Positions 891-28,204 are shown, counted from the stretch's first letter. The stretch: DNA of 34,824 nt from Candidatus Thorarchaeota archaeon (GCA_048882385.1 JBHLRQ010000027.1:1-34824); one strand, 5' to 3'. The notes: generated by a model not told the origin, from the letters alone. Numbers and translations: made by a program.

Positions 891-2075
891 ATGTCATTCG
901 TACATCAAGTATTTCTAAAGAAAATTCTTGATGGTATACATCCAGCATTAACTAATACATTCTTCTCCTGGGTCATCAGAAATCCTCGATATCTACGAGC
1001 AGTTATTCGGTTGGGTCGATCGTATAAGAGGGCTGAAAGGACACGGTTCATGTATAAGGAGAGAGGTCTGCAAGTCCCTTCTGTGATGATACTAAGTGTT
1101 ACATCAGCGTGTAATCTAGTCTGCGCAGGATGTTATGCAGCATCAACTAGAAGGGCTTCTAAAGACAATGGAGAATCAACAACGCAATTATCTCGTGACA
1201 CAAATCTCCCTAAGTGGAGGTCAATTATCTCCGAAGCTAAAGACTTGGGAGTGTTCGGATTTGTAATTGCAGGAGGAGAACCATTTCTTTGTGATGGAAT
1301 AATTGACCTATGCATGGAATTCAATGATCTATTCTTTCTAATCGTTACTAATGGCACTTCAATCAAGCATGGAGATTTTGAAAAACTACGTAAAGCATCC
1401 AATATTGCAATTGTCATAAGTTTGGAAGGTGACAAGGAAATTACAGATTCCAGGCGCGGTGAAGGCGTACATGCTCGAGCAATAAAATCTCTTGAACATC
1501 TTTGGAGTATTGGCGTCTTGACTGGTGTTTCAGCAACAATAACCAGAGCAAATTACCACTTCTGGATGAATAGAAGAAGTCTTGACAAGCTTGTAGAAAG
1601 AGGAGTAAGAATTGGTGTTTTCATAGAGTATATCCCCACACCAGAACCTACTGCTCCAGCACGTCAGTCTCTTTCACCATGCGCCGATCAAGGAAAGATG
1701 CTCTCTGTTGAGGAACGTCAGCAGTTCCGGAAGCATGTAGTTTCATATCGCAGCCAAAATCCAATATTCCTTCTTCATTCACCAAACGATGAGGAATTCT
1801 TTGGTGGATGCGTTTCAGCTGGTAGAGGATTTATTCATGTAACTCCAGCAGGTGACCTAACAGCATGTCCTGTTTCGAATCTCGCTACGCATAATCTACA
1901 TGATTCTAGTCTCAAAAAAGGACTTGCCAGTCCTCTCTTTAAGAAAATAAGGGAGAATGGTAGCATTCTAGAAAACCATGACCTTCCGTGTGCTCTTTTA
2001 TCTCATCATGATGAAGTTCTGGAATTAGCAAGATCCGTTGGGGCTTACCGCACCGATACAAGAAGTACTGTGTGA
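891..2075 (+). CDS. Radical SAM protein with SPASM/twitch domain
   Basis: CNLVCAGC (CxxxCxxC), GGEPF, TNG, and C-terminal GCVSAGRG...GDLTACP...C. GGAG upstream of the ATG. Confidence 0.9.
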   Translation: MSFVHQVFLKKILDGIHPALTNTFFSWVIRNPRYLRAVIRLGRSYKRAERTRFMYKERGLQVPSVMILSVTSACNLVCAGCYAASTRRASKDNGESTTQLSRDTNLPKWRSIISEAKDLGVFGFVIAGGEPFLCDGIIDLCMEFNDLFFLIVTNGTSIKHGDFEKLRKASNIAIVISLEGDKEITDSRRGEGVHARAIKSLEHLWSIGVLTGVSATITRANYHFWMNRRSLDKLVERGVRIGVFIEYIPTPEPTAPARQSLSPCADQGKMLSVEERQQFRKHVVSYRSQNPIFLLHSPNDEEFFGGCVSAGRGFIHVTPAGDLTACPVSNLATHNLHDSSLKKGLASPLFKKIRENGSILENHDLPCALLSHHDEVLELARSVGAYRTDTRSTV

Positions 2076-17700: not shown

Positions 17701-19884
17701 GTGAAACATGAGCTCAATGAGATTGCATGGTACATCATTACTGGTATCCACAAAAATGTCGTATCTGCAAGTTCATCGAATACTCTTGATATAACTGAGG
17801 CTGTAAGATTAGCAAGTCTTTCCTATGTGATTGAATGCGTAAATCAGGAAAAATGGAGATTCTCTCAACTCTCGTATGAAGCAGAACGACTCGGTGTTTC
17901 ATACCATGCAATATCCAACATCATAGATAGTGGGTTGGATTCATTCAAAGGTCCGAAATTAACTGATCTCACTAGGCACGAACTTGTCATACTTCTTGGA
18001 CTAATTCATTCAATTGGCAGTTTTCATTTACCTCTTCATTACAGTCAAGGAACTGCACAGAGACCACTTGGAGCATACTACACACCTCAGCGTGTGGCAG
18101 ATTACATCGTTTCACTGACCCTGACTCCTACACTGACCAAACTTGCAGAGAGTGTACCCAAGAAGGGTGTGAAAGCAATAGATACCATATTGTCATTACG
18201 AACACTCGATCCAGCCTGTGGTACAGGTGTCTTTCTAGTTTCAGCTTTGAATGCATATGTTAATGCACTAGATAAAGGACTTCATCTTGCTCGTGAATCA
18301 CGAATTAGTCATGACCTTCTAGAATCTGAAGAAGTCACGAATTTCATTCCAAAACTTCGGACAAATCTGTATGGTGTAGATGTTGATGCTGGTGCTCTCG
18401 AAGTCACAGATGTGTCACTCCGATTATTATCGGGCTCTATGGATGAATCCTTTTATGGAACTAATCTTAAACAGGGCAACTCTCTTGTTTCGCTCAAAGG
18501 TTTTGATGGAAATCAATCACATAGTCATTATTTTTCAGATGCTGCATCCAGACTCCCGTTCGAGTGGTCTGAAGAGTTTGAGGATGTGTTGAAACGTGGT
18601 GGTTTTGATTTTGTTGTGATGAACCCACCATATGAGCGATTGAAACCAAATCTTGCTGAATTTTTGAGAGAGAGAATTATAACGGGAGATCGAGAAATCC
18701 ATCTTGAAGAGTTTAACACTTACAAACAACAAATGAATGAAGACCTTCAATATTTCCGACGATCGGGCGAGTACTGTCTTGGGAATAAATATTCAATTGA
18801 TACTCATCGACTCTTTATTGAAAGAGCCATTCAATTGTCTCGTGTAGGTGGCAACATCGGTTTCATTGTCCCATCAACAATACTCGGTGATTTGTCCTCA
18901 TCCCCCCTTCGAAGGTCTATTATCAAAGAAAATGAACTTAAAACGGTAAGTGACTTTCCTGAAACCTCAAGACTATTCGAAGGTGTAACACAATCTGTTT
19001 CTATTATCTCTCTTCAGAAAGGTGGGAAGACAACATCATTTAGAGCCCAATTTGGACTCGTGGATTTTGATAATATTTCAAACCATAGTAGTATGCAAAT
19101 TAAGATAGAGAAGATTGAGGATGCAGTCGGTCCACATCTTTCCATCCCCCAACTGAATGAGGGATGTTGGTCACTATTTGAAAAACTACACAAGCACCCA
19201 GCACTATCCACTGTTGAAGGCTACGATGTGAAGCGAGGAGAATTAGATCTAACTCTAAACAAGTCTTGTATCACTTCCAAAGAAACTGAATTTCAACTAA
19301 TTCGAGGATCTGATATTTCCCGCTATTCACTGATCACTAGATCAAAAAGACCCATTGAATATGTAGATGTTGAGAAACTTAGTGAAACATTAGGCTCTTC
19401 CTCTAGAATTAGTCATATCAATAAATCAAGAATCGCATGTCAACAGGTTTCAAATAGAACGCAAAGGTGGCGCTTGAAATTTACCAGTATACCAAAAGGT
19501 TTCGTTCTAGCAAATTCCTGCAATTATATAACCATAGAAGATGGAATTCCAAAGAGAAATTTGGTATTATTACAGACTGTTCTAAATTCAGAGTTAATGA
19601 ACTGGCGATTTGGGTTGACAAATACAAATAATCATGTATCTATTCAAGAACTATTTCAGCTTCCTATTCCCCGCGTTGAAAATATCTCGAAGTATGTATT
19701 CAATTCAGTAAGAACAGCGGTTAACTCAGTCCAGAATGGAAACATTGCTAAAGAATCTCTACTGGAAGCAATTGTCTTCTCTATCTATGGATTTTCACCA
19801 ACTGAAGCACGCACGATTTTAGAACTGAGAAAGACTCCTCAATTCGAGATTCAGGAGATTGTTGATACATTGCAAACCATGTAA
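17701..19884 (+). CDS. N6-adenine DNA methyltransferase (gamma class, Alw26I/Eco31I/Esp3I-type with TaqI-like TRD)
   Basis: GAYYTP, motif I LDPACGTGVF, YGVDVD, motif IV VMNPPY, GFIVPSTILGD, and C-terminal RGELDLT, CQQVSN...RLKF, LANSCNY, NNHVS. Confidence 0.9.
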   Translation: MKHELNEIAWYIITGIHKNVVSASSSNTLDITEAVRLASLSYVIECVNQEKWRFSQLSYEAERLGVSYHAISNIIDSGLDSFKGPKLTDLTRHELVILLGLIHSIGSFHLPLHYSQGTAQRPLGAYYTPQRVADYIVSLTLTPTLTKLAESVPKKGVKAIDTILSLRTLDPACGTGVFLVSALNAYVNALDKGLHLARESRISHDLLESEEVTNFIPKLRTNLYGVDVDAGALEVTDVSLRLLSGSMDESFYGTNLKQGNSLVSLKGFDGNQSHSHYFSDAASRLPFEWSEEFEDVLKRGGFDFVVMNPPYERLKPNLAEFLRERIITGDREIHLEEFNTYKQQMNEDLQYFRRSGEYCLGNKYSIDTHRLFIERAIQLSRVGGNIGFIVPSTILGDLSSSPLRRSIIKENELKTVSDFPETSRLFEGVTQSVSIISLQKGGKTTSFRAQFGLVDFDNISNHSSMQIKIEKIEDAVGPHLSIPQLNEGCWSLFEKLHKHPALSTVEGYDVKRGELDLTLNKSCITSKETEFQLIRGSDISRYSLITRSKRPIEYVDVEKLSETLGSSSRISHINKSRIACQQVSNRTQRWRLKFTSIPKGFVLANSCNYITIEDGIPKRNLVLLQTVLNSELMNWRFGLTNTNNHVSIQELFQLPIPRVENISKYVFNSVRTAVNSVQNGNIAKESLLEAIVFSIYGFSPTEARTILELRKTPQFEIQEIVDTLQTM

Positions 19885-19897
19885 TAGTAAGGCTTTC

Positions 19898-21163
19898 ATG
19901 CAAGGAACCAATCGAAATCTTGTGAATTCCATATCACTTGTTTCCATTGAGTCTCATATTAGAGAAGAAGCAGATGAGTTTCTCTATAATCATGTATGCT
20001 CTTCATTGAGCGCCCTTGATATGGAGATGGTTCGCTCAGTGCCCCCTGGAGGTAACTGGCAAGATATTCCTGATAAGGTAGTTGAGAAGTCAGCGCGTCT
20101 TACTCAGATACGAAAGTCTGGTGGTCGTACGACATACTACGGGAGACTCATGAACCATCTTCCTAGCTACACAATCAATACATACTTCAATCGTCCAGGA
20201 AACGGAACATTTGTTCATCCAAACCAAGACCGATTAATTTCAATGCGAGAAGCTGCACGATTACAATCCTTTCCGGATCATTATCGATTCTTGGGGAATT
20301 ACAGTTCAAGATACAAACAAATTGGAAACGCTGTCCCACCTCTTTTAGCCAGAGCAGTAGCAGACCAGCTACCTACAGGTTTCATCGTGGACATGTTCTC
20401 TGGTGCTGGAGGATTATCAGAAGGATTTGTCCAAGCTGGAAATAATGTTGTTTTGGCTACAGATGCAAATTCACACATGTGCCAAACCTACGCATACAAC
20501 CATCCTCAGACAAACGTTGTTCGTGCCAATGTTACTAATTCATCTCAATCAGATGATTTGATTGAGGAGATAGAGCGATCATTAATGGGTAGAACATTGA
20601 CTACTCTTGTTGGTGGTCCACCATGCCAGGGATTTTCAACAGCTGGAAGGTGGGTTCCAACTGATTCGAGAAACTCACTTGTTATGAGGATGTTGGATTT
20701 TGTGTCTTTACTTAGACCTGAGAGTGTAGTGATTGAGAATGTTCCAGGTATGAAATGGATGAATAAGGGTCAAACATTAAAATCGGTCATGAAACGACTT
20801 GAAGATGAAGAATACTCAGTATCTGTTCTTGATTTGAAAGCGGAAGAGTATGCAGTTCCTCAAAGAAGACGAAGGGTGTTTGTTGTTGCTAGAGTTAATG
20901 ATGAACCAATTACAGCTCCACAAGGAATACTAGCCTCATTACTAGGAGGAAGAAATCGCCAAGAATCAAGACTTAGCACTGACGAATTGCCCCCTCCTGT
21001 TAATGTTGCGGAAGCTGTATCAGATCTTCCTCTGTTAACTCCAGGGGGTGGCTTTGATAGAATCGAATACAATCCGAGATGGATAAAATCAGACTATCAA
21101 AGATTGATGAGAGGAAATCTGCATTTACAGGAATTCATCGCAAAGAGAGCCAAGCAACGTTGA
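19898..21163 (+). CDS. Circularly permuted C5-cytosine DNA methyltransferase
   Basis: Motif order TRD - IX (REAARLQSFPD) - X (YKQIGNAVPP) - I (DMFSGAGG) - IV (GGPPCQGFS) - VI (ENVPG) - VIII (QRRRRVF). The start is uncertain (TTG 19859 or ATG 19898). Confidence 0.92.
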   Translation: MQGTNRNLVNSISLVSIESHIREEADEFLYNHVCSSLSALDMEMVRSVPPGGNWQDIPDKVVEKSARLTQIRKSGGRTTYYGRLMNHLPSYTINTYFNRPGNGTFVHPNQDRLISMREAARLQSFPDHYRFLGNYSSRYKQIGNAVPPLLARAVADQLPTGFIVDMFSGAGGLSEGFVQAGNNVVLATDANSHMCQTYAYNHPQTNVVRANVTNSSQSDDLIEEIERSLMGRTLTTLVGGPPCQGFSTAGRWVPTDSRNSLVMRMLDFVSLLRPESVVIENVPGMKWMNKGQTLKSVMKRLEDEEYSVSVLDLKAEEYAVPQRRRRVFVVARVNDEPITAPQGILASLLGGRNRQESRLSTDELPPPVNVAEAVSDLPLLTPGGGFDRIEYNPRWIKSDYQRLMRGNLHLQEFIAKRAKQR

Positions 21164-21217: not shown

Positions 21218-22915
21218 GTGATTGTGAGTGCCATTCTCTATGACCTACTTGGGTCAAAGGCATTAGCGTCTACTACATTCAGTCGTGACGCTATCTCTGA
21301 AGATTTTCTCCAAAGAGTCCTTGAAATCTACTATAAGCTAATCCAAGAGGATTCGGCACGAGACTTTGTCACAACCGAAATTGAAGATCGAGGTACCGTT
21401 TTGTCTAAGATAAGTGAAGTGACTTTGATTATAGGTGTCACTGACACTGGTACGATTCACGATAATGATATTGAGCGGATGAAGAGCTTCTCAGATGCTG
21501 TTGAAAAGCAAGTCGAACAATCATCTGTCAGAGAATTCAAAGATGATTTCGAACGTTTTGCAGAGGCGTTATTGAAAGAACGAATCCGAATTTGTTTTGT
21601 CACTTCCGAAGACCCATCGTTCGAAGACAAATCAGGCACTGCTGTTGACATGTTGTTTAGGACAAGAGGTCAAAGAGGCCGTGGATATACAGTCCCAGCT
21701 GCAATTGGTCCATTTGGTGTAGAAATAATGCGAATCTCATACGATTCAATAATCAAAACTAATTGGTCTGAAGACCTATCAAGTGCTGATGTATTTGGTT
21801 TGATTATCTCACCTCCTCTGCCAACAGCAGACCGAGTTGAACATGTCGTAATGCGGATTCGAGATGAATCCTCAGCAAAGCTGATTATAATTCCAGGATC
21901 TGATGATGAATTGGAACTTTCTAGAGAATATGAGGAACAATACGGTCTCGAGCTTTGTGATTCAGTTTCACCTAGACCTACAATCCTTCTACTCTCTGTT
22001 ATGGCTATAGCTGGATTCACCTACATGCACGCAGAGCTCGCGTTACAGAATTGGATTATTGATACTACTATCGATCAACTTTCATCAGATGATGAGCCGG
22101 AGGATGATGCTTTAGGTCATCAAGCCTTTTTTGTTGTAGACAAACGAACAGGCACTGCAGCTTATAGTTACTACTACGAAGAGAAATCGAGACTTCTTGA
22201 AATAGCACCGAATATTGTTGCTGCAATATCTGCCTTCAAGTTCGATCCAGCAAAACCAAACGAAACTTCTGTCTTCCAAGCAGGGGATCTCAATTACATT
22301 ACAATTGAACGTAATGATTATGTCTATACGCTAATCACTGGAAAGGATGCAAATGTGGAAGCACTTCGTGAACGATTTTCATTCTTGCCAGATCTTTTCA
22401 TGGATGAGGTTCCCGAGGTCGTCGAAAATCCCACAGATCTATTTCGGTCACCTCCTTTTACACTAAAACTACTGGCAACGCTTCCACATGAAGCAATTCC
22501 CGGGAGAATGGCTCCAACGCAATCAAGAGCGCTATTGTGGGAACGATTTGAGAATGCACCTGTTAGAGATTTCTTGGAAGCAGTTTGGAATAGATTGGAT
22601 GGCACACTCACAATGGCGAGGCTTGTTCCAGGAAAGGGTCCTGAAATGATGCTGGGGGCTATACACCTCTTAAACAGATTAGGAGCTATAAGGTTCGAAT
22701 TACGAATTGGACCTGATGACGCACCTATCTTGATTGGAGTTCCAGATGATGAGGTACTCTCATTATACTCACGTGTTGACGAGATTCTTGCACTTGTTGA
22801 TGGCAACAGGACAATAATCGATATTGCGAAAGAATTGGGTCTTCAACCCAGCGTTCTTGTTACAGTCTTTGCTGAACTTCATAGACGAGAAATAGTGACT
22901 ATTGATGAAGTGTAA
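21218..22915 (+). CDS. Longin / pseudo-GTPase / longin / tandem winged-helix protein (paralogue of the downstream gene)
   Basis: Collinear similarity to 23006..24967 but lacking GxxxxGKS, DxxG and NKxD. Two DG-x-T wH repeats at the C-terminus. GGAGG before the GTG start. Confidence 0.7.
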   Translation: MIVSAILYDLLGSKALASTTFSRDAISEDFLQRVLEIYYKLIQEDSARDFVTTEIEDRGTVLSKISEVTLIIGVTDTGTIHDNDIERMKSFSDAVEKQVEQSSVREFKDDFERFAEALLKERIRICFVTSEDPSFEDKSGTAVDMLFRTRGQRGRGYTVPAAIGPFGVEIMRISYDSIIKTNWSEDLSSADVFGLIISPPLPTADRVEHVVMRIRDESSAKLIIIPGSDDELELSREYEEQYGLELCDSVSPRPTILLLSVMAIAGFTYMHAELALQNWIIDTTIDQLSSDDEPEDDALGHQAFFVVDKRTGTAAYSYYYEEKSRLLEIAPNIVAAISAFKFDPAKPNETSVFQAGDLNYITIERNDYVYTLITGKDANVEALRERFSFLPDLFMDEVPEVVENPTDLFRSPPFTLKLLATLPHEAIPGRMAPTQSRALLWERFENAPVRDFLEAVWNRLDGTLTMARLVPGKGPEMMLGAIHLLNRLGAIRFELRIGPDDAPILIGVPDDEVLSLYSRVDEILALVDGNRTIIDIAKELGLQPSVLVTVFAELHRREIVTIDEV

Positions 22916-23005
22916 ACCATATACCCATAAGGTTCAAGAATGCTCAGAACGAGCAAGAAAAGTAGATAACACGATACAAAATACACTTTGTTTGGATGTG
23001 AGACC

Positions 23006-24967
23006 TTGATTCACAACGTTCTTCTAATCGAAAAGGCAAATGGAAACGTTGTAGTCAAGACTAGATTCTGGAAAATTGATTTCGAACAGAAAGATATCCT
23101 TGAGTTTCTTGCAGGATACAACGATCTTCAGTCAACTGAAGGACTTGCTGAGGATACACCAGTATTTGTTGCAGAGAAACACAAAGTCTTTCACGGTCCT
23201 GTTGATGCTGACATGCTCCTCCTCTTAGTTACTGATGGTCGCGATGAAGATAGGGCCATTCAACACAGAGTGCGAGAAGGTGCATCTAGAATCTCTACCT
23301 CTCTCAGAGGCAACAGCATCGGTTACATTCGTGACAATCTTGATGATATACTTGGAGAACTAATCTTCACTCATTTCAAGGTCTCATTCGTAGGGAGCGG
23401 TGGCGTTGGAAAGAGTACATTATTGCGACTACTCTTTGGAAAGGAACCTGCTCCTGGAGGATATGTTCCTACAATAAACGTAGCTGTAGACTCCTCTGAA
23501 ACAATACAGTTTGGAACCTTCTTGGTGACTGTCTGGGATTTCGCTGGGCAGGCTGTGTTTCAGGATCTCTGGAGCTTCTATTTCTCAGGAACTGATGTCA
23601 TCTTTCTGATTACCGACTCAAGTTTCAGGAATGTGATGCAGACAAAATCGCTGTTGCGTAACATCCGCAAGGAAGCGCCTGCAGTTCCACTCTTTATCAT
23701 TGCAAACAAACAAGACCTTCCTGAATCAATGAAGGCTGAAAAAATCAAGAGGCTTCTTGGAGCTCCAACCTTCGCAATGGTTGCAACAGATAAAACTCGA
23801 AGAGACGAATTCATTAGGCTCATGCTTGAGGTGTCCGCAAAGACAGTAGGTGTTCAACTTCCAGAGTTGCCTATTAGTGAGATGATAACAGTTAGGCGCG
23901 GCTCTGAAGAGATTGATCCCGGTCCACAAGCTCCGGGTCCTCGAGCTAGAACCGCTCAACCATCAGGTTATGAAAATGTTCCATATGACGAAAGTAGTAT
24001 TGAATCGATAAGTGAAACTCCTATTCCCAATGGCGAAGAAGCATTGGCTATCGCTGAATCTTCTGAAACTCCTATCCAAGCAACTACACAAAAACAGCAA
24101 ATGGTTGCTCAGGTGGTTCCAGATAAAGCCCGTATTCTTCACTTCTTACTTATTGTGCAGAGGGATGGTATGCCTGAAGTGGCCTTTCATCTGAAGTATG
24201 CTGATGATGAAATCGACAAGAATTCAGTGGCGTCTTTGATTTCAGCATTAGATTCCTTTGGGGGTATCGATGCTGAAGCAGGAAAGGACTCTTCATCTAT
24301 AGATGCTCTTGAAACTATTGAGCACGAAGGCAATCTGGTCATGGTCGAGAAATCCAAACACTTTGTTATGGCTCTGATCGTGACTAACGATGGTGATGAA
24401 GATGTCCAACGAAGTATTCTTACTTCTCTGCTCGTAGAAATTGAACAAAGATACGCGGATGTTTGGGATTCATGGGACGGGAATGCCTCAATCTTTGAAA
24501 CTTCTGTATTTGAAGTTTTGACAAGACTTCCATTGAAGCCCATAAGTTTTGATTATATTGTTCGTTCAAGAGAAGCTGGAAAGCCACTGCCTTTTGAGAA
24601 TCGCGAAGTTGGTGCTGCTGTGGTAGCAGTCAAGAGTGCAATTGAGACTAATGAGACAATTGGTGGTCTTGTTCGGAGTGTCGACCTGCCTCGCGATACT
24701 GTTCTAGGCTGTCTTCAAATCATGAATCAATTCGGATGGATTGATTTCAAGGTCGAGATTGGTCCAGAAAGTCATCTTAGGAAAAAGGGCGATGTGGATG
24801 AAGAGACACAGAAAGCCTATGGAGCAGTGGTTGTGAAATTCGTTGATCTTTGTGATGGTACCATTCCTATGCAGGATGTAGTGAGAAAACTCAATGTTAG
24901 TCTGCCAGCAATGAAATTTGTTGCTACCAAGCTAGTTCTTGATGGAGTCCTAGAAGTCGTAGCATGA
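23006..24967 (+). CDS. Multidomain Ras-superfamily small GTPase: longin - GTPase - linker - longin - tandem winged helix
   Basis: G1 GSGGVGKST, G2 YVPT, G3 WDFAGQ, G4 NKQD. Longin-like IHNVLLIEKANG... and ILHFLLIVQRDG...LISALDSF. Probable start TTG 23006 (track start 22988). Confidence 0.88.
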   Translation: MIHNVLLIEKANGNVVVKTRFWKIDFEQKDILEFLAGYNDLQSTEGLAEDTPVFVAEKHKVFHGPVDADMLLLLVTDGRDEDRAIQHRVREGASRISTSLRGNSIGYIRDNLDDILGELIFTHFKVSFVGSGGVGKSTLLRLLFGKEPAPGGYVPTINVAVDSSETIQFGTFLVTVWDFAGQAVFQDLWSFYFSGTDVIFLITDSSFRNVMQTKSLLRNIRKEAPAVPLFIIANKQDLPESMKAEKIKRLLGAPTFAMVATDKTRRDEFIRLMLEVSAKTVGVQLPELPISEMITVRRGSEEIDPGPQAPGPRARTAQPSGYENVPYDESSIESISETPIPNGEEALAIAESSETPIQATTQKQQMVAQVVPDKARILHFLLIVQRDGMPEVAFHLKYADDEIDKNSVASLISALDSFGGIDAEAGKDSSSIDALETIEHEGNLVMVEKSKHFVMALIVTNDGDEDVQRSILTSLLVEIEQRYADVWDSWDGNASIFETSVFEVLTRLPLKPISFDYIVRSREAGKPLPFENREVGAAVVAVKSAIETNETIGGLVRSVDLPRDTVLGCLQIMNQFGWIDFKVEIGPESHLRKKGDVDEETQKAYGAVVVKFVDLCDGTIPMQDVVRKLNVSLPAMKFVATKLVLDGVLEVVA

Positions 24968-27106
24968 TTACGTCTTGATGATTATCCTCTCTCTATAATC
25001 TGGTAGGTTGATTCCCTTTGGTGACTTTTCTATTGGTGTGTGAACCATTATTCGTTTTCCTGAACACGAATCTATGTATTTCTGAAGATTGGATGCTGAG
25101 GAATGTGCACTGAGTCTAGCATATTCTACCTTACACTCATGTGGTTCAAACCCATGTAGGAGGTTCCATCCTGGTGTTCGTGGTGCAAGATAGCCACAGA
25201 GAATGATGGCTGCTTTCGGATTGTTCCTTTGCTCGTTGAAATGATATCTTGCAAGACCTCCTCCTAACATTCCACCTCCGGAAACAAGAACATCATCTTC
25301 ATTGAGGTGGACCTTATTTTTCTTCATACTCTCCCAATGCCCACTAACTCCAACTAGATTTGTCACACGATCTGCCATACCTGTTACCATCACATTTCGG
25401 TTCTTCGTTACGCCAAGATTCTCTAGAATTGTCAGAATCTCTTGGGATCGACCGACTGCGAAGCTTGGAATAATAACTGGTCCATGATTTGCTATGAGGT
25501 TGCTAATTGATTCTGAAACGCCCTTTCGATCGAAATCTTCACGTCCCCAATAAGTACCATCAAAGATGATGTAGTCTGAATCTGTTGGGATAGATGCTCC
25601 TGGAAACAGAGCTGATTCATCCATATTGAAGTCACCAGTGTACAAAATCTTTGTTCCTTCTACATCGATTGAAAAAGCTGCACTTCCTGGGATATGGCAA
25701 GCATCAATTGGCGTTACAACTATTCCTGGACTTACTTCATTACTCTCTCCATATTCTAGGCGAACATGGTTATCTGTAGCTTTTTTGACATTATCTTCTG
25801 AAAATCTGGAAACTAAATCCAATTTGTCATGTTTCCTTGGAGCTGCTGGTGTTCCAACCTTTAGAGCGTCATTCAAAAGTAGTTTGGCAATTCCGCCTGT
25901 TGTTCCAACTGAACACCATTTCCCATCAAACTTGTCGAAGAGAATTGGAAGTCCACCCAAATGGTCAAGGTGTCCATGACTTACCAGTACTGTATCAATC
26001 ATTTCTAATTCTGGAATCCACTCTGGAATCCTATGATTCGCAACCGACAAACCAAAGTCCAGTAGAATCCCTCCAGTATCGGTTTTTATAAGAATGCCAC
26101 TACGACCAATCTCAGGTCCACCCAGGAAAATTATCTCGATGCTTTTTGTCCTACGCGAGTATGCGACTGATGGAAGTAGTCCCATTCTGAGCTTCTTGGG
26201 GATTAGTTCGAAAATCACAGGATCTACTGCATCTCCAGGCGGTGGAGATGGAAGGTCTTGCAGTCGAATTGGCAAGACTGCTTTAGAATGACTCTTGAAT
26301 TTATTGTCTTCAAAATACCTGTTCACTGCATCGATGGATTTTGACACAGTCATGTCTGTGTGTACAACAGATTGAGCTCCTTCGTATGTCTTTTCTCTTG
26401 ATATGGAAAAAAGATCCGATAGGAGAGCGTCTGGAGTCCACTCCTTGCATGTTTCATATACCTCGAAGAATGGTCTCCCTTCAATGGCTTCTCGTAGATA
26501 CTGTGGATGACGAGTAATGGCATCCACTAATTTCAAGTCCTCTGAATCTACAACAGATTTGATATCAATCCCTAAATCTTCTCCAGCTTTGATGAATGAT
26601 GCTGGTCCAAAAACAGGCGCACCCAGAAATTGTATCCAAAATCGAACTTCTGAAAAGATTTGATTCACATCATCATGATGAGTTGCTGCTAAGAACAGCA
26701 ACCCTTTTCGAAGCCATTGTTCTATCTTTTGCTGATTTCTTAAGTGTTTGAGAGAAAATCTATAGATATGCCTGAAATCCTCTTCATTGTAATTACCAAG
26801 GATTAACCCGTAAAGTCCAAGTGTCAAAGCCTGCACAATATCTGTAACTGAGGGTTCTTCTCTAACATCTCTGAATATTTCCATCAGGATCTTGTTGGCA
26901 GAACTTGCTTTTTCGAGTGATTCTACGGAACTACCTATTGATTTTGCCAATTCGAACAAAAGTAGTTCGCGAGATTCATTGAATATATCATTCTCATCTG
27001 GAATCTTTTCATTCCTTGAGAGGAGCTTAAGGTCTGATTCTGCCTGACTGAACATTGATCTAATTATTTTATTCTTAGTCTTAGGGATACCTTTCTTTAT
27101 GTTCAT
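24968..27106 (-). CDS. MBL-fold beta-CASP nuclease (CPSF73/aCPSF-like) with a long uncharacterised N-terminal domain
   Basis: FLGG..EIGRS, LLDFG, SHGHLDH, HIPGS, YTGD, DGTY, SFAVGRSQE, GML.GG, GY, LSAH. Start ATG 27106 or GTG 27115. Confidence 0.9.
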   Translation of the reverse strand: MNIKKGIPKTKNKIIRSMFSQAESDLKLLSRNEKIPDENDIFNESRELLLFELAKSIGSSVESLEKASSANKILMEIFRDVREEPSVTDIVQALTLGLYGLILGNYNEEDFRHIYRFSLKHLRNQQKIEQWLRKGLLFLAATHHDDVNQIFSEVRFWIQFLGAPVFGPASFIKAGEDLGIDIKSVVDSEDLKLVDAITRHPQYLREAIEGRPFFEVYETCKEWTPDALLSDLFSISREKTYEGAQSVVHTDMTVSKSIDAVNRYFEDNKFKSHSKAVLPIRLQDLPSPPPGDAVDPVIFELIPKKLRMGLLPSVAYSRRTKSIEIIFLGGPEIGRSGILIKTDTGGILLDFGLSVANHRIPEWIPELEMIDTVLVSHGHLDHLGGLPILFDKFDGKWCSVGTTGGIAKLLLNDALKVGTPAAPRKHDKLDLVSRFSEDNVKKATDNHVRLEYGESNEVSPGIVVTPIDACHIPGSAAFSIDVEGTKILYTGDFNMDESALFPGASIPTDSDYIIFDGTYWGREDFDRKGVSESISNLIANHGPVIIPSFAVGRSQEILTILENLGVTKNRNVMVTGMADRVTNLVGVSGHWESMKKNKVHLNEDDVLVSGGGMLGGGLARYHFNEQRNNPKAAIILCGYLAPRTPGWNLLHGFEPHECKVEYARLSAHSSASNLQKYIDSCSGKRIMVHTPIEKSPKGINLPDYRERIIIKT

Positions 27107-27151
27107 TGAAATCACATGAATTCTTAGTGTCTTGGTTTGTAAGAGCCCTTC

Positions 27152-28204
27152 TTAGGCTTTGTTAGTGACATTATACATTCCTTGACGACTATCTCTTAAC
27201 GAGAGTTTCTTGTCAACAAGTCCTTCACTCATGAGAAGTGATAGTGCGTATCTAACGGTACGTGGGGGGAGTAGTGTTTCCTCTATTATTTCCTTCTGGG
27301 TAAGCTGTCCTTTATATTCAAGAATCTTGAAGACAAGCTTTGCACTTGGGGGAAGTTCTTGGGCGATTTCTTCAGTTGTTTCAGTTTTTCTCAGTAATTT
27401 TCCTCTAAGTGCTGCGATCCTCTCTTCAGCGAATTTGACGAAAACTGCACTGGAATCTGCTTTCCGAATATGTACAGGTTGGTCGTCCACTTTTCTTCTG
27501 ATCTGACCATCAAGTACAGCTTCGACAGTCACAGAACTTGTCAAGTCGCGAATCTCAAGATTAAGAACATCTGACAAAACAAGGGGTCTTCTTGCTGGAT
27601 TGACACTATTGACAGGAATTACTGATAATACTGGAGATGATGGTAAAATGACTGGTCCTCCCACGCTCAATGAGTATGCCGTGCTTCCTGTTGGCGTAGC
27701 CACAATGAGTCCATCACTTCCATCTTTCCAGAAGTGCTCTCCATCTATGAAGAGGGAGTATCGAATCAGCGTTGCACTTCTCCGAGCAAAGATTCCAATG
27801 TCATTCAAGAGAGGAGGTGTTTCCTTTCCCAATATTTCCGCGACTATCCTTTTTCGTTCTTCCTTCTTCCATCTAAGGTCTAGAAGATCGCTAATGACAT
27901 AATCAATACTTGAGGACGATATTTCAAAGAGGAAATCTGGTTGACCTTTTGATGCCAATGGGAGAATTGGAACATCTCTCTTTCCCAACTCAAGGAGTTT
28001 CCTTAATAGTATTCTATCAGACCCAATTATCGCAATTAAATCAACATCCATCTTTCTGATATTTGTCCCACTAGAATCTTTCAGAATTGTTGCTAGTTTA
28101 TCCTCTAGCATTAGATCAACACCGCTTTTATTTAGAACATCGATGACATTCCGTGCGTCTTCCAGTATGCTTGATTCCAATCCCGATGCGATGCCTATTC
28201 TCGT
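27152..28204 (-). CDS. NAD kinase-fold protein fused to a C-terminal winged HTH; apparent ACG start
   Basis: LND, DGLIVATPTGSTAYSLSVGGP, RPLV and DGQ motifs. GGDG is replaced by GSDR. C-terminal LPPSAKLVFKILEYKGQLTQKEIIEETLLPPRTVRYALSLL. GGAGG-N8-ACG gives (M)RIGIASG (track start TTG 28180). Confidence 0.85.
   Translation of the reverse strand, partial: TRIGIASGLESSILEDARNVIDVLNKSGVDLMLEDKLATILKDSSGTNIRKMDVDLIAIIGSDRILLRKLLELGKRDVPILPLASKGQPDFLFEISSSSIDYVISDLLDLRWKKEERKRIVAEILGKETPPLLNDIGIFARRSATLIRYSLFIDGEHFWKDGSDGLIVATPTGSTAYSLSVGGPVILPSSPVLSVIPVNSVNPARRPLVLSDVLNLEIRDLTSSVTVEAVLDGQIRRKVDDQPVHIRKADSSAVFVKFAEERIAALRGKLLRKTETTEEIAQELPPSAKLVFKILEYKGQLTQKEIIEETLLPPRTVRYALSLLMSEGLVDKKLSLRDSRQGMYNVTNKA

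Follow-up and report, generated by a model that had tools for sequence, protein, structure and literature searches.

A putative GTPase:pseudoGTPase pair of longin/winged-helix paralogues in one family of Thorarchaeota

Whether two adjacent genes, one encoding a complete small GTPase and the other a protein of the same layout that lacks nucleotide-binding motifs, specify the two halves of a single complex is the question raised by a locus in a 34,824-nucleotide (nt) stretch of Candidatus Thorarchaeota archaeon DNA (GCA_048882385.1 JBHLRQ010000027.1:1-34824). This whole stretch is called the window below; it belongs to an assembly of 3.70 Mb (genome G000; 256 contigs, 95.3% complete). The upstream gene is named A and the downstream gene B (Table 1). 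In the best explanation, to which we assign a probability of about 0.6, A and B are duplicates of a gene for a longin/G/longin/winged helix-winged helix (wH-wH) protein, arisen in the ancestor of one Thorarchaeota family, and act as a heteromeric GTPase:pseudoGTPase complex. Gene A begins with GTG, preceded by GGAGG 10 nt upstream of the start, and its 200 homologues are each unnamed or called "hypothetical", while many of the 235 homologues of B are called ADP-ribosylation factor-like. The reading frame of B is open from TTG 22988; however, the residues MIHNV, which correspond to TTG at 23006, come first in 20 of the 23 rows of the B alignment, so the protein most likely has 653 amino acids (aa) and the spacer 90 nt.

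Paralogy of A and B and the fate of the nucleotide pocket

Comparison of the two proteins by BLASTP gave two collinear high-scoring segment pairs, A444-542 with B536-637 (27% identity, E 1e-5) and A70-240 with B77-252 (22% identity, E 0.002). All sequence blocks that an earlier note, made from the DNA alone, had matched between the genes lie in register within these two pairs. The hhalign comparison of family profiles (24 and 23 sequences for A and B, respectively) produced a single end-to-end alignment of 543 columns (probability 93.8%, E 1.7e-7). Profiles of the N-terminal longin (L1), the G or pseudo-G domain, the second longin/roadblock domain (L2), the middle segment, the wH-wH part, and the composite from L2 to the end were then cut from deeper alignments of 63 A and 44 B sequences and compared in a 6 x 6 matrix of 36 comparisons. 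Cognate matches were obtained for L1 (95.4%, E 1.6e-8), for pseudo-G with G (85.2%, E 6e-6, 87 columns), for L2 (34.6%, E 4e-4), for wH-wH (98.1%, E 7.7e-14), and for the composite (98.6%, E 9e-16, 259 columns); the short middle segments had no mutual match (0.4%). The four comparisons of a composite with its own overlapping L2 or wH-wH part scored 31-98%, and all 26 non-cognate pairs remained below 7%. Since each domain matches its counterpart only, the similarity of A and B is well beyond chance. The end-to-end alignment and the matrix agree, and at the level of sequence profiles A and B are confirmed as full-length collinear paralogues, as had been claimed. B has the appearance of a longin-GTPase joined to a longin-wH-wH module, because longin-GTPases and L2-wH-wH modules also occur alone in the same genome, and A has that of its degenerate duplicate. 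When the A profile was searched against 1.84 billion cluster representatives, 44 matches were found, all of them to its own family or fragments of it, and B was not recovered at a library-wide E <= 0.001. The same profile had no match among PDB sequences at E <= 10, and in the ESM Atlas A residues 296-565 matched only clusters of unnamed Thorarchaeota proteins of about 291-425 aa.

The two proteins differ sharply in the G domain. B carries the G1 GxxxxGK[ST], G3 DxxGQ, and G4 NKxD motifs of Arf-family small GTPases and matches their profile above the curated cut-off; in Pfam it was recognized as Arf (1.2e-18; 67.6 bits, cut-off 22.3), Roc (5e-16), Ras (3e-13), and Gtr1_RagA (3e-5), and in NCBIfam as small_GTP (58.9 bits, cut-off 42.5). 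Among sequences of solved structure, Arf1 and Arf6 come closest to it (E about 1e-15), and its GSGGVGKST, WDFAGQ, and NKQD are invariant in 44/44 orthologues. In contrast, none of 63 A-family members contains GxxxxGK[ST] anywhere in the protein, and none has [NT]KxD at the place of G4. In A, the stretch at the place of the P-loop reads C-F-V-T-S-E-D-P-S-F-E-D-K-S-G, and those at the places of G3 and G4 read MRISYD and PGSD. The loss of the P-loop, DxxG, and NKxD upstream, together with the retention of the G motifs downstream, was thus rightly read from the DNA (0/63 against 44/44 for G1, G3, and G4). The A family has conserved motifs of its own, namely IGP, PGSD..LE..R, LCDSVS, and DMHPELA. 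Lacking the P-loop lysine/serine, DxxG, and NKxD, A is most likely unable to bind nucleotide canonically, and its middle domain is a pseudoGTPase, with the motifs of nucleotide binding lost and the G-domain fold, as modelled, kept.

The fold was assessed in an AlphaFold2 model of A with a mean predicted local distance difference test (pLDDT) score of 81.6, reaching 84-93 in the middle domain. VIA-align, run on Foldseek's list and again against 48,161 representative chains (lists filled by residues 1-270), resolved three domains in the model: a longin, a small-GTPase fold, and a longin/roadblock domain. B was modelled poorly (mean pLDDT 55.9; 26-45 in the G domain and at its switch regions, behind a 120-residue N-terminal longin), and for this reason the longin and winged-helix folds of B are deduced from homology to A. 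The longin-GTPase-longin-wH-wH layout proposed in the earlier note therefore holds for three domains in the A model, where the expected G fold of the middle domain was found, and for B by homology; the C-terminal winged helices are predicted from weak Pfam-type matches (HTH_47, MarR, TrmB, and Rrf2 at A 515-562) and from the strong profile match between A and B. Alignment columns F387, L390, P391, F414, K417, L419, and P423 of A are invariant.

The divergence of the two genes was compared as mean pairwise p-distance in 21 genomes that have both. Overall, A is the faster of the two (0.64 vs 0.36 in B), with the greatest difference in the middle domain (pseudo-G 0.70 vs G 0.10) and a marked one in L1 (0.76 vs 0.33), which is the least conserved domain of A, whereas L2 diverges equally in both (0.47). 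The distance matrices of A and B are correlated (r = 0.69). In the pseudo-G domain, nonsynonymous divergence (dN) amounts to 0.12-0.53, or 0.12-0.28 between species of one genus, with synonymous divergence (dS) saturated; dN/dS was 0.05-0.2 where computable, values that are only bounds because of this saturation. As dN stays well below the saturated dS, A is under purifying selection and is evolving fast, not decaying.

Is the pair a complex?

Orthologues of A were sought in 400 Asgard genomes. They were found in 75 of the 85 genomes of the window's GTDB family, or 76/86 with the window's own genome, and in all 16 genera, and none was found in the other 314 Asgard genomes searched, in which weak C-terminal matches occurred in one sister-family genome and in 3/19 genomes of another family (f14). 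The A family is lineage-specific, confined to one Thorarchaeota family. The B profile matched in 259/400 genomes at E <= 1e-30, and matches at orthologue level (E below 1e-100) were limited to the window's family and the sister-family genome G311. Synteny and co-occurrence were counted by hand from match coordinates and are descriptive, since related genomes are not independent. Both genes are present in 74 of the 86 family genomes, only B in three, only A in two (fragments at contig ends), and neither in seven. In 63 of the 76 genomes that have A, it lies directly 5' of B in the same orientation and about 90-185 nt away; in nine others a contig end truncates a gene or the two are on different contigs. 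The co-conservation and adjacency expected of a functional pair were accordingly observed, despite an A identity of only 33-55% between genera.

A complex was modelled for the A:B pairing from A residues 1-430 and B residues 1-495, so that each chain had its two longins and its G or pseudo-G domain (wH-wH tails excluded), with our own alignments supplied and GTP and Mg included. The interface score ipSAE (interaction prediction score from aligned errors) was 0.68, 0.67, and 0.67 in three runs, and 0.02 in the best of three controls, with a partner pLDDT of at least 77 and a contact agreement between runs of at least 23%. The same mark is reached by 116/157 solved complexes and 2/215 mismatched pairs, a calibration that holds only roughly here because of the supplied alignments and the ligands. 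The heterodimer suggested in the earlier note is thus predicted, in a model without the wH-wH tails. Confident contacts involve A residues 232, 236, 246, 248, 263, 269-271, 273-274, and 277, which lie in the helix following PGSD, the LCDSVS strand, and the DMHPELA helix, and B residues 206-208, 210, 239-240, 242-243, 246, 249-250, and 252, in DSSFRN and the helix following NKQD; the two G folds meet by their equivalent sides. All confident contacts join the G domain to pseudo-G, although both L2 domains were included in the model, and residues not listed here are uncertain rather than excluded. The mean top-residue frequency is 0.80 for the 11 confident interface residues of A, compared with 0.45 for the other positions of the domain (Mann-Whitney p 2e-5), and nine of the 11 belong to the 33/158 positions that are at least 70% conserved.

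These data can be accommodated by the following mechanism. B would be the switch, with a complete Arf-type nucleotide pocket, the catalytic glutamine of WDFAGQ, and an almost frozen G domain. A would retain its G fold because, as we propose, this fold offers B a surface on which to dock: in the model, the alpha4/beta6/alpha5 side of pseudo-G packs against the equivalent side of the B G domain (the segments that follow G3 and NKQD), giving a pseudo-symmetric dimer. In the simplest history, an ancestral B:B homodimer would have become asymmetric by degeneration of one subunit to a nucleotide-free scaffold, and the four longin/roadblock domains and four winged helices could serve as platforms for effectors or regulators. 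The idea that the dead copy regulates the active one is a conjecture, with no GAP (GTPase-activating protein) or GEF (guanine nucleotide exchange factor) residue identified. Still more tentative, and rather doubtful as a whole, is the proposal of a self-contained two-subunit switch, in which a live Arf-like G domain would dock on a dead one via the alpha4-alpha5 side while both chains bear longin-wH-wH modules of the kind that became the eukaryotic NPRL2/NPRL3-type regulators.

Several observations weigh against a heteromeric complex. B occurs without detectable A in G368 (one 2.58-Mb contig), in G322, and in G311, and for G368 and G322 the absence of A holds with the deeper 63-sequence profile. 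In G311 the B orthologue is intact (644 aa) and a secreted caspase-domain protein stands upstream in place of A, and in G322 the gene 5' of B is not related to A. It follows that B can do without A. Furthermore, an insert of 1.9-3.6 kb separates the two genes in 4/76 genomes (G372, G373, G375, and G377), and co-transcription of A and B is not universal, as G375 has an opposite-strand open reading frame (ORF) between them. The heterodimer can therefore not be called obligate, as it was in the earlier note. The conservation of the B interface residues (DSSFRN, LPESMK..RLLG) is equal in the A-less G311 and G368, so A is not what keeps that surface of B constant. The complex score is a measure of model confidence and concerns 20-24 confident contacts only, the conservation test is not fully independent because the predictor saw the alignment, and no confident longin-longin contact was reported in the modelled part, that is, up to the wH-wH tails.

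If these points are given full weight, there would be no stable pair: adjacency would be the trace of a tandem duplication, B would work alone or as a homodimer, and A would have taken up a task of its own, such as that of a longin/wH scaffold for another small GTPase. Possible candidates for other partnerships are plentiful, with at least 28 matches to the B G domain or to the modules in the genome, and no A-B fusion was found among proteins of 990-2825 aa, which is weak evidence. This alternative is nevertheless considered unlikely. Adjacency is retained across 16 genera while the A sequence has diverged strongly, the complex model is far above its controls, and the predicted contact coincides with the conserved patch of an otherwise fast-evolving pseudo-G domain. 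In addition, both genes are missing together in seven genomes of the family, including two of genus g10 that are 93% and 85% complete; both genes are present in their relatives G333 and G334.

Comparison with longin GAPs, GEFs, and Rag-type GTPases

A second alternative is that A is an enzymatic regulator of B, a GAP or GEF that uses a longin-longin platform as NPRL2-NPRL3, FLCN-FNIP, or Mon1-Ccz1 do, with pseudo-G as a spacer only. Structural searches gave some reason to consider it: the top Foldseek matches of A are SEA/GATOR1 chains, MON1A-CCZ1, Gtr1/RagA, LokiRagO, and Fuzzy (E 6e-7 to 1e-4), and the poor model of B, which can offer a lead only, also gave matches of the SEA/GATOR1, MON1A-CCZ1, and Fuzzy type. 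However, the TM-scores of these multi-domain matches are 0.14-0.32 (residue ranges covered not shown), low values that are explained by a multi-domain and flexible model. The Fuz_longin_1 profile matches at L2 in 21/63 A-family members, with a best score of 21.6 bits that is below the cut-off of 26.1. The three consecutive longins of tri-longin Rab GEFs (Mon1-Ccz1, Fuzzy-Inturned, HPS1-HPS4) do not occur in A, where the middle domain has a G fold. Two loops are also relevant. In GAP-type longins a GP motif sits before strand 2 of the longin, according to the part of PMC12290439 that was available; at this place L1 of A has a conserved loop DL.G(S/P)K, which is GPK in some orthologues. L1 of B has the near-invariant loop TDGRDEDR with two arginines. 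The two loops could be counterparts of longin GAPs' GP motif and arginine finger, judging by their sequences. No arginine finger was located in a structure, though, and L1 is the very domain that A conserves least. As the confident contacts are between G and pseudo-G and not between longins, the longin-longin pairing that the earlier note implied by analogy with Mon1-Ccz1, FLCN-FNIP, and GATOR1 finds no support in the model. Direct membership of A and B in the NPRL2/NPRL3 family is not supported by sequence: Pfam NPR2 (PF06218) has no match in the genome at E <= 1, and HTH_NPRL3 (PF24064) gives only matches below its cut-off, none of them in A or B, as it also does in 5/14 control genomes. Taken together, an enzymatic role of A is improbable.

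A possible resemblance to NPRL2-NPRL3 of GATOR1 lies in a paralogous pair with a longin and a small C-terminal helical/winged-helix part. GATOR1/SEAC chains were matched by A (8adl_S at 6.4e-7 and 9o5d_D at 9.6e-6) and by B, at TM-scores of 0.15-0.22 with the residue ranges not shown. In contrast to A and B, NPRL2 and NPRL3 contain no G domain, and an arginine finger was identified in neither A nor B. Least probable is that A and B are GTP-controlled DNA-binding regulators whose winged helices bind DNA while the GTPase sets their activity, for the C-terminal matches to DNA-binding wHTH families listed above, with those to Sulfolobus_pRN and to DUF742 (6/63 members), lie below the Pfam cut-offs except for MarR_2 (best E 3.6e-6 in 3/63 members, score not shown), no conserved neighbouring target genes were seen (the convergent beta-CASP gene is the one neighbour kept), and the winged helices of NPRL2/3-type and ESCRT-II-type proteins bind proteins.

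The reading of A and B as a GTPase:pseudoGTPase complex finds its closest eukaryotic likeness in the Rag/Gtr heterodimers (RagA/B-RagC/D, Gtr1-Gtr2). These too consist of two paralogous G-fold proteins in which the G domain is followed by a C-terminal roadblock-type domain, an order that both A and B have. Gtr1 and RagA are among the Foldseek matches of A (E 2e-6 to 8e-6), and Pfam Gtr1_RagA is found weakly in 44/44 B orthologues (best 2.1e-6). The differences are, however, considerable. Both Rag subunits bind GTP, which A probably cannot do canonically, and on this count the pair falls outside the Rag family; B scores better as Arf than as Rag, has a canonical NKQD, and, like A, possesses an additional L1 and wH-wH. 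Rags dimerise through their C-terminal roadblock domains, a contact that is not confidently reproduced in the A:B model. A longin next to an Arf-like GTPase is likewise known from the SRX longin of SR-alpha and SR-beta, but these are separate chains that act in protein targeting, and no signal-recognition context is seen at the A-B locus.

Among archaea, GTPases fused to longin and/or roadblock domains were described for MK-D1 (Prometheoarchaeum), where one operonic Rag-like pair was predicted to heterodimerise through its roadblock domains (PMC10933270, main text as far as available). A preprint (10.1101/2020.10.19.343400), also available in part, reported Rag-family GTPases with a fused longin and, in most Thor genomes, a family of NPRL2-like longin proteins. 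In these Asgard proteins, as in LokiRagO (PDB 8yl2), the G domain lies between a longin and a roadblock-type domain, and an Arf-like annotation goes with a Rag-like architecture. A and B share this design and differ from the MK-D1 systems in that A has lost all nucleotide motifs, that both proteins have an extra wH-wH tail, that the confident predicted contact is G to pseudo-G and not roadblock to roadblock, and that the A family is limited to one family of Thorarchaeota. Literature searches returned no description of this pseudoGTPase partner, within the accessible parts of these sources; Fig. 5c and the supplements of the preprint and the supplementary figures of PMC10933270 may show the architecture. 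The statement that no characterised example exists is thus correct for this particular pair as far as these sources go, but not for the kind, which is already in print. What is new, on the same partial basis, is the partner without nucleotide motifs, whereas Asgard longin/roadblock-fused Arf/Rag-like GTPases and an operonic pair of them were known.

Eukaryotic switches for nutrients and trafficking (Rag-Ragulator, GATOR1, Mon1-Ccz1) are built around paired G proteins and longin/roadblock platforms, the origin of which is an open issue of eukaryogenesis. The A-B locus offers a compact and well-conserved two-gene archaeal case of subunit asymmetry after duplication, in which a pseudoGTPase would keep a conserved docking face, and the lineages with B alone are natural controls. 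Its interest is chiefly mechanistic and evolutionary, and no direct eukaryotic ancestry is claimed. If the two-subunit switch proved true, it would be a living example of a homodimeric G protein becoming an asymmetric, Rag-style pair with built-in regulators, and the Asgard "NPRL2-like" longin proteins would have an identified client GTPase.

Neighbouring genes and related loci

Table 1. Features of the A-B locus in the window and of related loci elsewhere; positions outside the window are counted in the locus named (L023 to L027)
Feature	Position	Strand	Description
Gene A	21218..22915	+	ORF; 565-aa pseudoGTPase paralogue: longin, pseudo-G, longin/roadblock, wH-wH
A L1	21218..21574	+	N-terminal longin domain, residues 1-119
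A L1 loop DL.G(S/P)K	21239..21259	+	residues 8-14, conserved ahead of strand 2
A pseudo-G domain	21575..22042	+	residues 120-275; predicted small-GTPase fold without G1, G3, G4 motifs; predicted face toward B
A L2	22109..22417	+	second longin/roadblock domain, residues 298-400; most conserved domain of A
A linker motif and wH-wH	22418..22912	+	residues 401-565; conserved RFSFLPDL...SPPFTLKLLATLP; two predicted winged helices
Intergenic spacer A-B	22916..23005	+	90 nt
Gene B	23006..24967	+	653-aa active GTPase paralogue: longin, Arf-like G domain, acidic/low-complexity linker, longin/roadblock, wH-wH
B L1 loop TDGRDEDR	23231..23254	+	residues 76-83, near-invariant
B G domain	23366..23875	+	residues 121-290
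B G1 GSGGVGKST	23393-23419	+	
B G3 WDFAGQ	23534-23551	+	
B G4 NKQD	23705-23716	+	
B L2 + wH-wH module	24125..24964	+	residues 374-653; homology to the same module of A
DNA methyltransferase	17701..19884	+	Eco57I/N6-type, TaqI-like specificity domain; overlaps the next gene, upstream of A
C5-cytosine methylase	19859..21163	+	Pfam match in two stretches; directly upstream of A
Beta-CASP nuclease	24968..27115	-	metallo-beta-lactamase/beta-CASP, long N-terminal extension; convergent on B
NAD kinase	27152..28180	-	fused to C-terminal MarR-like winged helix
Beta-CASP gene of G311	L023 7288..8922	-	3' of B after one small ORF
Insert of G375	L024 1932..3512	-	526-aa ORF between A and B
C7 pair	L025 3377..6720		379-aa protein upstream of 566-aa longin-GTPase with acidic tail
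C84 module genes	L026 2203..3903 and 968..1360	- and +	tandem paralogous genes, 292 + 272 aa; L2-wH-wH module alone; near Roadblock/LC7 gene
C86 pair	L027 1271..3237		372-aa protein just upstream of 283-aa longin-Arf-like GTPase

The two methyltransferase genes 5' of A may constitute a mobile restriction-modification island. In the C5-cytosine methylase, motifs IX-X appear by eye ahead of motifs I-VIII, which looks like a circular permutation. The beta-CASP neighbour on the other side of the pair is also present in the A-less G311. The ORF inserted between A and B in G375 has no Pfam match and looks like a membrane or secreted protein; it belongs to one subclade of genus g12.

Other loci of the genome show longin-GTPases and the L2-wH-wH module outside the A-B context. 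The module stands alone in the two tandem genes of contig C84, the 292-aa ORF of which (291 residues translated) matches A residues 305-565 with a probability of 94.7% (E 5.9e-8). Two further longin-GTPases are preceded by a partner gene. That of contig C86 encodes a 372-aa protein whose N-terminus looks longin-like by eye and which has a weak helix-turn-helix match, and that of contig C7 a 379-aa protein which by eye resembles it. Both partners are unrelated to A; the C7 protein, with its apparent longin and winged helix, was rejected as a relative of A on profile comparison (probability 0.2%). On contig C86, a masked stretch (X in translations) is found at about 4400..4500 of L027, within a lysine/glutamate-rich repetitive ORF.

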